A stretch of 64,000 bases of DNA, from the IMG/VR virus record IMGVR_UViG_3300042894_004439, positions 19,175 through 83,174 of that record; one strand, 5' to 3'. The DNA is from a virus. A model generated the notes under the pieces. The model worked only from the letters and a program-made list of their open reading frames with translations, ran no database searches and had not been told where the DNA came from. Both the position numbers and the translations under genes were made by a program. This document shows, piece by piece, positions 51,890 through 53,306 of this stretch (the stretch's first letter is position 1; each line of letters begins with the position of its first letter).

Positions 51890-52512
51890 AAACTCTATTA
51901 ATCATTACTGGTCCGCAAGGGTCTGGTAATCATTTATGGTCAAAAATCTTTGCGCTACACCCAGATGTGTATGGCTGGCACACCCTGTTACATGAATACT
52001 GGATAGGGCATGATCAAGAACCTTTTGCAGATTGTTGGGCTGATCCCGACGAGTTAAAAGAATTTGACTGGGGTGAATGCAAGTACTTTGTCACAAGTGT
52101 AAGTACTCCGTACATGCTCAACGGTGAACGTACCATACCCAACATTGTGCGTTTTGCTGCCACAGCCCTGGGACTGGGCATACGGGTAAAAATTGCCATC
52201 ATTGGACGTGATCGTAATATATTACAGTATCAAGAGACTCGTGTACGTGGAGAACCCACATTCGATATAGCACTAGCAGAATATGAAAAATTAACAACAT
52301 GGAATCCTGTATTCTTAAGTTATGAATTGTTGCATCTTTATGGTGATCTTTATCTACAACAGCTATCTGATCAATTGGAGTTCCCTATTGATTATTCTAG
52401 TCCCCAACTGGAAAATATTTTACAGGATGATACAAACAGTAAGTACTTTCAACCAGTGACACATCATCCTACAGATGATTTAGCACGACATACTTCAAGG
52501 AAATGGCGATGA
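51886..52512 (+). CDS. Sulfotransferase-like P-loop protein
   Basis: IITGPQGSGNH, IIGRD, LSYELL. Confidence 0.6.
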   Translation: MKTLLIITGPQGSGNHLWSKIFALHPDVYGWHTLLHEYWIGHDQEPFADCWADPDELKEFDWGECKYFVTSVSTPYMLNGERTIPNIVRFAATALGLGIRVKIAIIGRDRNILQYQETRVRGEPTFDIALAEYEKLTTWNPVFLSYELLHLYGDLYLQQLSDQLEFPIDYSSPQLENILQDDTNSKYFQPVTHHPTDDLARHTSRKWR

Positions 52513-53306
52513 CAGCACAACGTATATTAATCATGGGCTTGCCCGGCGCAGGCAAAACATATCTAGCACAGCACATATTAGACCACTTGCAGGCAGAACG
52601 CAAACGTGTGCATTGGCTCAATGCCGACGATGTGCGTAAAGAATACAACGACTGGGACTTTACTGAAGCAGGCCGTATTCGACAGAGTGTGCGTATGCGT
52701 ACACTAGCAGATTCATTCACTGACGTAGACTACGTAATCTGTGACTTTGTTGCACCACTGGTAGAAATGCGCAACAACTTCAAAGCAGACTGGTGTGTGT
52801 GGGTTGACACCATTGACAAAGGTCGTTTTGAAGATACCAACCGAGCGTTTATTCCTCCAGAAGTTTATGACTTCCGTATTACAGAACAAAAGTCAGAGAA
52901 ATGGGGTGAATTCATCGCCGCACACATATTAGATAATAGACGCCGTCCTGTGTTTGATTGGCAACGAGAAACTGTACAGATGCTGGGCCGTTGGCAACCG
53001 TGGCATGCCGGTCATCGTGCGCTGTTTGAACGTGCTATCGCTAAAACTGGACAAGTGGTTATTCAAATACGTGACTGTCAGGGATGGCAAGGTAGTAACC
53101 CGTTTGAAATAGACAAAGTCAAATCATTTATCAAACGTGATTTGGACATGCTATATCAAGGTCAATATGAAATTCAAGTTGTGCCCAACATTGTTAATAT
53201 CACTTACGGTCGAGATGTGGGTTATAAGATTGAACAAGAATCATTTGACGAAAAAACTCATGCTATCAGCGCCACTGAAATTAGAAAACAAATGGGACTC
53301 AAATAA
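52509..53306 (+). CDS. cysC: Adenylylsulfate kinase fused to an HxGH nucleotidyltransferase domain
   Basis: GLPGAGKT, NADDVR, DF...GR; C-terminal GRWQPWHAGH and ISATEIR. Confidence 0.8.
   Translation: MTAQRILIMGLPGAGKTYLAQHILDHLQAERKRVHWLNADDVRKEYNDWDFTEAGRIRQSVRMRTLADSFTDVDYVICDFVAPLVEMRNNFKADWCVWVDTIDKGRFEDTNRAFIPPEVYDFRITEQKSEKWGEFIAAHILDNRRRPVFDWQRETVQMLGRWQPWHAGHRALFERAIAKTGQVVIQIRDCQGWQGSNPFEIDKVKSFIKRDLDMLYQGQYEIQVVPNIVNITYGRDVGYKIEQESFDEKTHAISATEIRKQMGLK

Follow-up and report, generated by a model that had tools for sequence, protein, structure and literature searches.

The question raised by this locus was whether a single phage protein of 265 amino acids could carry out both steps of sulfate activation, turning sulfate into APS (adenosine 5'-phosphosulfate) and APS into 3'-phosphoadenosine 5'-phosphosulfate (PAPS). 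The gene, here called KIN-NT, lies in a 64,000-nucleotide stretch of viral DNA (the window; positions 19,175 to 83,174 of IMG/VR virus record IMGVR_UViG_3300042894_004439). Two enzyme types that activate sulfate are known, Sat and CysDN. Comparison of sequences suggested, at chances we put somewhat above even, that KIN-NT is a bifunctional PAPS synthase in which the sulfurylase is a hitherto undescribed minimal domain derived from nicotinamide mononucleotide (NMN) adenylyltransferase (NMNAT).

52509..53306, plus strand: KIN-NT gene, for a candidate PAPS synthase with both functions; 265 aa with the start at 52509, 267 aa with the ATG at 52503

The start at 52509 is the second ATG of the open reading frame (ORF) 52503..53306. 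Start and stop codon share the sequence ATGA where this ATG meets the end of the upstream ORF (51886..52512), and AGGAA precedes it by about 8 nt; for these two reasons the 265-aa form was considered the likelier product; residue numbers below follow the 267-aa numbering. An initial annotation had proposed an ORF of about 265 aa at 52509-53306 with an APS-kinase-like N-terminal domain and a C-terminal domain of about 110 aa carrying GRWQPWHAGH and ISATEIR. The ORF list, the ATGA overlap and the AGGAA bore the ORF out, the Pfam, phrog and protein-library matches and the C-domain model described below go beyond what chance would give, and both motifs were read directly from the sequence, as were the P-loop GLPGAGKT and a third conserved C-terminal motif, YGRDVGY, which had not been listed. 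The host record comprises 83,174 bases and is estimated to be 22% complete. The window encodes a clamp loader, a Clp-type protease, a virion protein and a spanin-like protein, and related contigs of up to 383 kb carry T4-type neck and sheath-stabiliser genes, so that the record was taken to be a fragment of a giant T4-like phage. No near-identical match to window positions 44000-60000 was found in the phage collection, and no tRNA was found in the 64-kb window.

52515..52940, plus strand: APS-kinase-like P-loop domain, residues about 5-146, assigned from PF01583, PDB 2yvu and Foldseek
52536..52559, plus strand: Walker A motif (P-loop) GLPGAGKT, read from the sequence, with K18 kept in 235 of 238 kinase-domain sequences and gaps in the other 3

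The APS-kinase-like character of the N-terminal half was well supported. Pfam APS_kinase (PF01583) matched residues 8-94 above its cut-off (E 1.1e-10, 42.1 bits vs 21.1), spanning only model positions 5-93 of 152, and the best PDB sequence match of this half was the APS kinase 2yvu (7.5e-7). The whole protein was modelled with AlphaFold2 (AF2) at a predicted local distance difference test score (pLDDT) of 94.6, and the Foldseek matches listed for this model (ranks 1-50) were all APS kinases or PAPS synthases (best E 6.8e-7), with template modelling (TM) scores normalised to the target of 0.58-0.73 for the single-domain kinase chains listed. Residues K18, D42, R45, F53, R58 and R90 were kept in 232-237 of the 238 kinase-domain sequences. 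The P-loop and fold are common to KIN-NT and the CysC-type APS kinases (PF01583; 2yvu, 4bzp, 1m7g), while in the aligned stretch KIN-NT reads NADDVR..FT..GR..Q against LDGD..R..FS..R..N in the solved enzymes, and its lid region appeared by eye to be about 10 residues shorter. The kinase half scored below the NCBIfam naming cut-offs (29 vs 138.7 bits for TIGR00455 and 38.8 vs 127 for NF004041). Over its full length the protein matched phrog_10255, annotated 'kinase' (E 5.5e-49, residues 6-265 vs model positions 2-229 of 230). We hold with high confidence that the N-terminal half is an APS kinase, its catalysis being predicted.

52971..53303, plus strand: minimal HxGH nucleotidyltransferase domain, residues about 157-267, candidate ATP sulfurylase, from the model, VIA comparison and profile search
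53004..53015, plus strand: HxGH motif H168-A-G-H171 inside GRWQPWHAGH, read from the sequence, with R163, Q165, P166, H168, G170 and H171 invariant in 237 of 237 small-domain sequences
53205..53225, plus strand: YGRDVGY loop, resembling the Sat GRD loop VGRDHAG as given in PMC6607087, with G236, R237, V239 and G240 invariant in 237 of 237 and D238 in 207 of 237
53265..53285, plus strand: ISATEIR (ISxTxxR) motif, read from the sequence, with S256 kept in 236 of 237 and R261 invariant in 237 of 237

Fold and motifs agreed that residues of about 157-267 form a domain of the HxGH superfamily, in line with the motifs pointed out in the initial annotation. Modelled alone (pLDDT 93.4), the domain was aligned by VIA over 89-114 residues at Z scores of 9.6-6 with phosphopantetheine adenylyltransferase (PPAT), NMNAT, Sat, NadR, GCT and FAD synthetase. 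The highest scores, for PPAT (9.6), NadM (9.2), archaeal NMNAT (9.2), Thermus ATP sulfurylase (8.7) and NadR (8.7), are ties, and comparison of the predicted structure with Sat and NMNAT thus supported the HxGH fold and did not discriminate between them. With the Sat enzymes (1v47 of Thermus thermophilus and the yeast structures 1g8h/1j70) the domain has an alpha/beta nucleotidyltransferase core in common, the alignment to 1v47 covering 114 residues with a root-mean-square deviation of 3.4. No Foldseek match to the C-domain model reached E <= 0.001, the weak matches being a mixture of GCT, PPAT, pantothenate synthetase, NMNAT and Sat, and an Atlas look-up of the domain returned generic 'cytidyltransferase' clusters only.

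At the sequence level the small domain pointed to NMNAT. A profile built from 13 small-domain sequences retrieved, from the PDB sequences, NadM 2qjt (5.6e-10) and archaeal NMNAT 1f9a (2.6e-8), and the GRxQPxHxGH, the downstream NPF and the ISxTEIR helix of these enzymes (2qjt, 1f9a, 1ej2) align with KIN-NT. The caveat attached to the initial annotation, that motifs common to other nucleotidyltransferases do not settle the substrate, holds; the nearest sequence relatives are NadM and the archaeal NMNATs. HMMER paired profile positions 12-74 with residues 5-67 of 1f9a and positions 89-116 with its residues 107-133, so that the NMNAT core is incomplete: about 25 residues (approximately 82-106 of 1f9a, from strand 3 to the ISxT helix) are replaced by about 6. 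We take the missing segment to hold the nicotinamide-binding residues of archaeal NMNAT. Against the NMNAT families themselves, residues 160-228 alone aligned, at 24.8 vs 181.2 bits for TIGR01527 and 27.3 vs 127 for NF002243, below both cut-offs. These alignments indicate that the small domain is a cut-down NMNAT-like fold and not a Sat by descent. The reduced second-substrate region would leave room for a small second substrate only.

The likeness to Sat proposed initially was upheld in part. PMC6607087 gives four Sat motifs, namely QXRN, HXXH, VGRDHAG (the GRD loop) and PFR. KIN-NT resembles Sat in its HXXH and its C-terminal ISxTxxR-type helix, has in YGRDVGY a loop that shares G-R-D and the second small residue with VGRDHAG and may be its counterpart, and differs in having neither QXRN nor PFR, nor the N-terminal beta-barrel domain (domain I) of Sat, within its 265 residues, and in a size about half that of the Sat catalytic domain. 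Where QXRN would precede HXXH the sequence reads GRWQP, with the invariant R163 and Q165 at other positions. By the criteria of the Sat and NMNAT families themselves the C-domain thus falls outside both, and it may work like Sat. As to the C-terminal helix, an ISGT motif occurs in Sat.

Conservation was assessed on 237 distinct sequences of the small domain, drawn from three settings, namely phages, bacteria of soil and the marine fusions to canonical CysC (238 sequences for the kinase domain). Fourteen C-domain residues (R163, Q165, P166, H168, G170, H171, R190, P228, N229, G236, R237, V239, G240 and R261) were invariant in 237 of 237, with overall identity in the family falling to about 31%, and a degenerate, purely structural domain is therefore disfavoured. 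R190 stands at a glycine position of two aligned NMNAT chains, and the region of R237 and the GRD loop aligned weakly there. R190, R237 and the backbone of G240 are proposed as a candidate sulfate-holding site.

The fusion partner of the small domain provided a second line of evidence. In a 311-aa protein (P0214) the small domain comes first and a complete canonical CysC second (PF01583 5.7e-63, matched over model positions 2-151 of 152). This architecture makes up a populated marine family, here NT-CysC: of 297 candidates in a search with the small-domain region, 177 reached E <= 0.001, the 120 of them that were listed being mostly about 310 aa and all carrying PF01583, and full-length copies occurred at 37 metagenome loci. 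In P0186 too the order is the reverse of that in KIN-NT, the small domain preceding a non-canonical kinase. Among 160 phage loci, the window included, the fused form was present in 147, and in 8 the two domains were encoded by adjacent separate genes, one of these 8 in reversed order. Whether the order is swapped, the genes are split or a canonical CysC takes the place of the kinase, the small domain keeps an APS-kinase partner. The presence of a canonical CysC in that place also lends indirect support to the predicted APS 3'-phosphorylation by the kinase half of KIN-NT.

Relatives of KIN-NT are very abundant. In a representative library of 1.84 billion proteins 2081 were recovered at E <= 0.001, and in a 90%-clustered collection 7897 of the 8000 scored candidates lay at E <= 0.001; the current names of relatives are 'kinase', 'adenylylsulfate kinase', 'phosphopantetheine adenylyltransferase' and 'hypothetical'. 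Twelve of the 15 phage records that matched held full-length relatives of 37-41% identity, including the Xylella phages Sano, Salvo and Bacata and phages of Stenotrophomonas, Xanthomonas and Clavibacter. When bacterial genomes were scanned, 461 stretches matched and 342 of these were confirmed to be relatives, and the best 80 of the 342 were almost all from Alphaproteobacteria (Bradyrhizobium, Chelatococcus, Microvirga, Hyphomicrobiaceae, Acetobacteraceae and sphingomonads). A literature search at the level of listings returned no description of the KIN-NT family and its setting.

Variants of the two domains were also observed. A paralogous second kinase domain was present in four phage loci (L063:1512-2495, L061:2299-3249, L051:59-1018 and L013:5497-6390). 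In L051 it lies about 1.5 kb upstream of KIN-NT, and in the other three it is the directly upstream neighbour. It carries an additional N-terminal domain of about 180 residues that has no assignment, and its P-loop is degenerate in three of the four (GLPESSKN or GYPGSKKD, lacking the GK[ST] pair), L013 retaining GEKGSGKT. A small domain without a kinase (L112:7767-8345, L113:1781-2359 and L116:7338-7916) was joined to an N-terminal segment that is hydrophobic, about 75 residues long and presumably DUF2061-like. In small low-GC alphaproteobacterial genomes (G394, L336:9898-10679; G324; G192) of 0.8-1.3 Mb, with 24-31% GC at the locus, the kinase and the small domain formed a split pair; that of G394 lies on a 626-kb contig adjoining genes for a Rieske oxygenase and halogenase-like proteins, in a genome that also encodes a canonical APS kinase of its own.

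Gene neighbourhoods formed the third line, beginning with the window itself.

49630..50607, plus strand: solute-binding protein of the TctC/Bug type, with which the coupled run begins (Pfam TctC 3.7e-19)
50604..51233, plus strand: sulfotransferase, co-oriented within the ATGA-coupled run (Pfam Sulfotransfer_3 1.9e-6, 28.7 bits vs a cut-off of 27; recovered in the six-frame genome search too)
51230..51889, plus strand: run gene of 219 aa from the ORF calls, without a family
51886..52512, plus strand: run gene of 208 aa from the ORF calls, with an N-terminal glycine-rich loop GPQGSGN, without a family
53358..54260, plus strand: SGNH/GDSL-like protein 3' of KIN-NT (weak Pfam Lipase_GDSL_2 0.0014, below cut-off)
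54263..55540, minus strand: 425-aa candidate with the sulfotransferase-like loop LTPDRVGSTLL, a motif only, matching no Pfam family even at E <= 10

Each of the genes starting at 49630, 50604, 51230 and 51886 overlaps the start of the next by 4 nt, and because of these successive overlaps KIN-NT was read as the last gene of a translationally coupled run that includes the sulfotransferase. No Pfam family at E <= 10 was found for the ORFs 51230..51889 and 51886..52512; both recur with the sulfotransferase and KIN-NT in 9-10 of 80 related phage loci, and the whole neighbour set (TctC, sulfotransferase and the two genes without a family) in 9-12 of 80. A homologue of the SGNH/GDSL-like protein is fused straight to a kinase domain in P0156. 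The C-terminal part of another kinase-domain protein, P0206, gave sub-threshold Pfam matches at E <= 10 (Sulfotransfer_3 0.096, Stf0 0.15), and in a pairwise comparison it aligned with the 425-aa minus-strand ORF at the loop alone (E 0.76). P0206 as a kinase-sulfotransferase fusion and the 425-aa ORF and the two run genes without a family as sulfotransferase-like are leads only.

Across the 80 closest phage loci a sulfotransferase was the commonest neighbour cluster (23 of 80; Sulfotransfer_3 1.2e-18). When the flanks of the 160 phage loci were searched with three home-made profiles, a sulfotransferase was found at 60, within 3 kb at 53 and within 500 bp at 23. The commonest neighbour at alphaproteobacterial loci was a TPR-sulfotransferase (Sulfotransfer_3 3.9e-43), seen at 11 loci with a median gap of 28.5 bp and accompanied at L183, L191, L220 and other Bradyrhizobium-type loci by a C39-peptidase ABC exporter and an HlyD protein. 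At the high-GC bacterial loci ORF calling lost the target in 21 of 80, and the counts of neighbours matching the sulfotransferase profiles there rest on the remaining 59. At the marine NT-CysC loci, clustering had placed a TPR-sulfotransferase at 21 of 37; this was rejected as the cluster was joined by TPR repeats. Two large downstream genes on the same strand also occurred at the marine loci (L254, L255, L268 and others), one of about 680 aa at 25 of 37 and one of up to about 1500 aa at 7 of 37, neither with a Pfam family; the former gave a weak Atlas lead (0.83) to RTX-like repeat proteins.

The fourth line came from bacterial genomes that carry the small domain. A sulfotransferase needs PAPS and an APS kinase needs APS. 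In a sample of 401 alphaproteobacterial genomes 14 had a small-domain match at E <= 1e-8, and 11 of the 14 matches were strong (G245 is included in the count and was not used as support). Ten carriers were searched for known enzymes, of which one had Sat, two had CysD over cut-off, one had a partial CysD-type match and six had neither; control genomes behaved as expected in all enzyme searches. In G156, a single contig of 2,060,775 bases, only 12 bp separate the gene of a 260-aa KIN-NT from the next gene, which encodes a Sulfotransfer_3 protein of 328 aa (1.7e-18), the sole match to that family in the genome. Six-frame scans of G156 found no Sat, CysD or AprA, and CysN was below cut-off (best 101 vs 336 bits). 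KIN-NT was the only substantial APS-kinase match, two others reaching 22-23 bits, and PAPS_reduct matches were weak and within one 399-aa frame. Among 41 further carriers 17 had no CysD match at E <= 1e-30, and of these 17, 16 had no Sat and 15 no PAPS_reduct. Since these genomes show no known APS-making enzyme, the small domain is the obvious candidate for making APS.

The initial annotation had assigned both steps to one enzyme. The kinase half of that claim is well supported, as described above, and the sulfurylase half is argued for by four independent comparative lines: the CysC fusion, the sulfotransferase neighbours, the genomes without a known ATP sulfurylase and the invariant catalytic residues. 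From these we infer both catalytic activities of KIN-NT.

A number of observations weigh against a sulfurylase in KIN-NT. The small domain is tied in structure between several enzymes as described above, and in sequence it is nearest to the NMNATs (NF002243 2.2e-6, in addition to 2qjt). No Sat chain appeared at E <= 10 in the PDB profile search, the Pfam ATP-sulfurylase family PF01747 was missing from the 25 families shown out of 27 matched at E <= 0.1, and the absence of the QXRN and PFR motifs counts in the same direction. The flanks of 100 of the 160 phage loci contained no sulfotransferase by the three profiles, and a domain-only search found one near just 7 of the 37 marine NT-CysC loci. 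No Sulfotransfer_1 or Sulfotransfer_3 match over cut-off was found genome-wide in the Stenotrophomonas phages Bhz60 and DLP_6, which are complete, cultured and carry KIN-NT. The kinase half occurred alone in 3 of the 15 matching phage records, the three belonging to two Ralstonia phages, and in P0156 (SGNH-like fusion) and P0206 (sub-threshold sulfotransferase-like fusion) the kinase lacks the small domain. A CysD-type match was present in 24 of the 41 further carriers (G429 among them), where the small domain would often be redundant, and the absences in the remaining genomes were called by six-frame profile scans of genomes that include metagenome-assembled genomes of unreported completeness. 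For the Bhz60-type phages, PAPS might feed assimilation via CysH-type reductases instead, and divergent sulfotransferases there may escape detection.

Several of these observations would suit a protein that acts as an APS kinase only, with the host CysDN or Sat supplying APS and the small HxGH domain binding nucleotides in a regulatory or assembly role. Such an arrangement has precedents: the APS kinase of Thiobacillus denitrificans carries a sulfurylase-like domain that is inactive, and fungal ATP sulfurylase carries an allosteric domain that resembles APS kinase. The hexameric T. denitrificans enzyme (3cr8) was itself one of the structures matched by the C-domain (Z 6.4). The carriers with CysD, the relatives with a kinase and no small domain and the missing Sat motifs all fit such a role. 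The 14 residues invariant at identities down to about 31%, among them both HxGH histidines, the GRD arginine and the ISxTxxR arginine, instead form the pattern of a working active site; moreover, no alternative source of APS is seen in G156 or in 16 further carriers, and the small domain stays with its kinase through order swaps, splits and the change to a canonical CysC. A kinase-only role was thus considered unlikely, while remaining the most serious competitor to a bifunctional PAPS synthase.

The affinity to NMNAT raises a different explanation, namely NAD salvage of the NadR kind with the domain order swapped, in which nicotinamide riboside would be phosphorylated by the P-loop domain and NMN then adenylylated by the C-domain, helping the phage to restore NAD+. 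In its favour, the closest sequence relatives of the C-domain are NadM and the archaeal NMNATs, NadR chains were among the structural matches (Z 8.7 and 7.9), KIN-NT adjoins a NADAR-domain gene in Bhz60, and the two cultured phage genomes have no sulfotransferase over cut-off. The kinase domain is APS-kinase-like in both sequence and fold, however, and AAA_28, which we take to be the NadR kinase family, was not among the 25 Pfam families shown of the 27 matched. In addition, a whole marine family joins the small domain to a canonical CysC, the neighbours met most often are sulfotransferases, and the NMNAT core is short of about 25 residues. NAD salvage therefore seems the most improbable of the explanations considered. 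At the Bhz60 locus (L002, 5562-7388) KIN-NT lies between the NADAR-domain gene and a DNA methyltransferase, and a gene annotated 'cysteine dioxygenase' is found 3 kb upstream.

Polysaccharide genes were found near bacterial copies of KIN-NT, including an epimerase, a GDP-mannose pyrophosphorylase, a DegT aminotransferase and a MurJ-type flippase. In 11 of 80 phage loci (L065:5240-6001 and 10 more) the gene directly upstream of KIN-NT encodes a 253-aa protein with a cytidylyltransferase-like domain (1.5e-11) and a C-terminal mannose-6-phosphate-isomerase/cupin domain (8.5e-15). Both settings, the rank of PPAT as top structural match (Z 9.6) and the name 'phosphopantetheine adenylyltransferase' given to relatives by some sources would be consistent with a kinase and an adenylyl- or cytidylyltransferase that activate another phosphate ester for a glycan or cofactor pathway, on the model of CoA synthase (PPAT and dephospho-CoA kinase) or HldE (sugar kinase and adenylyltransferase). 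The Foldseek matches listed for the full model include no dephospho-CoA kinase or sugar kinase, though, the canonical CysC fusion and the tight sulfotransferase pairing (including the sole sulfotransferase of G156) point to PAPS, and the second-substrate region is probably too reduced for a large ester. Activation of another ester was accordingly held to be very unlikely, if marginally less so than NAD salvage.

For the bifunctional PAPS synthase we thus favour, the following scheme may be proposed. The C-domain would be a cut-down descendant of a NadM or archaeal-type NMN adenylyltransferase, and its 110 residues would convert ATP and sulfate to APS and pyrophosphate. The N-terminal P-loop domain would phosphorylate the 3'-OH of APS to give PAPS, which would feed the sulfotransferase or sulfotransferases of the same translationally coupled run in the giant phage. 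The phage would then be independent of the host cys-regulon enzymes, and a sulfated target presumably exists.

Known PAPS synthases provide a direct comparison. Human PAPSS1 (1x6v) and the Aquifex aeolicus Sat/APS kinase (2gks) likewise combine an APS-kinase-type P-loop domain and an HxGH-superfamily domain in one chain, the kinase-first order of KIN-NT being that of PAPSS1. Both were among the Foldseek matches listed for the full model, and the C-domain matched them by VIA at Z 6.3 (1x6v) and 6.1 (2gks). These enzymes have 546-630 residues and a Sat-type sulfurylase of about 350-400 aa with QXRN, VGRDHAG and PFR, whereas KIN-NT has 265 residues, a second domain of 110 and no PF01747 match. 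It differs from the NMNATs in that its partner domain and gene neighbourhood are those of sulfation and not of NAD metabolism, and in having R190 in place of the glycine mentioned above. A further parallel is the sulfated-peptide system of Xanthomonas oryzae, where RaxPQ, enzymes of the CysDN/CysC type, supply PAPS. The Bradyrhizobium-type loci resemble a sulfated-peptide export system in their layout, with the same set of parts as the rax system (RaxST/RaxA/RaxB/RaxPQ) and KIN-NT in the place of RaxP/RaxQ; the sulfotransferases at these loci differ in carrying TPR repeats.

Beyond the sulfation genes the window contains a likely lysis block at 55497-57401 (plus strand), directly following them, in which a spanin-like protein (phrog_4952 8.5e-29) and a DUF4337 protein (6.9e-28) are accompanied by a protein with a weak likeness to GH19 chitinases/endolysins (7.9e-5, below cut-off). 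A complete DnaJ with J domain and C-terminal domain (58203-58991, plus strand) is directly followed by a Clp-type ATP-dependent protease/ATPase of 765 aa (59038-61335, plus strand; phrog_4871 4.6e-236). A second HxGH nucleotidyltransferase-like gene (62555-64000, plus strand) continues past the window end. Its N-terminus reads PGRFHPFHRGH and matched Pfam CTP_transf_like (3.8e-4, 21.1 bits vs a cut-off of 21) and, weakly, the small-domain profile (2.2e-4), and the at least 400 residues that follow the N-terminal domain have no family match.

We regard as evenly balanced the broader proposition that the C-domain is a third, independently evolved type of ATP sulfurylase beside Sat and CysDN, which would have arisen from an NMN-adenylyltransferase scaffold by deletion of the nicotinamide segment and gain of conserved arginines, would, when fused to or paired with an APS kinase, be the sole sulfate-activating enzyme in many Alphaproteobacteria lacking CysDN, Sat and CysH, and would let giant and ordinary phages produce PAPS free of host sulfur regulation. 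If the assignment is true, a sulfurylase of 110 residues derived from the NMNAT fold would be a new and much smaller solution to sulfate activation and a possible third type. It would explain the PAPS supply in sulfotransferase-bearing bacteria that have no known ATP sulfurylase (G156 and 16 of the 41 further carriers), and it would correct the annotation of a very abundant metagenomic family. A PAPS synthase of 265 residues in one chain would also be handy for PAPS regeneration in enzymatic sulfation. For the phages, the finding would indicate that they run a sulfation chemistry of their own.

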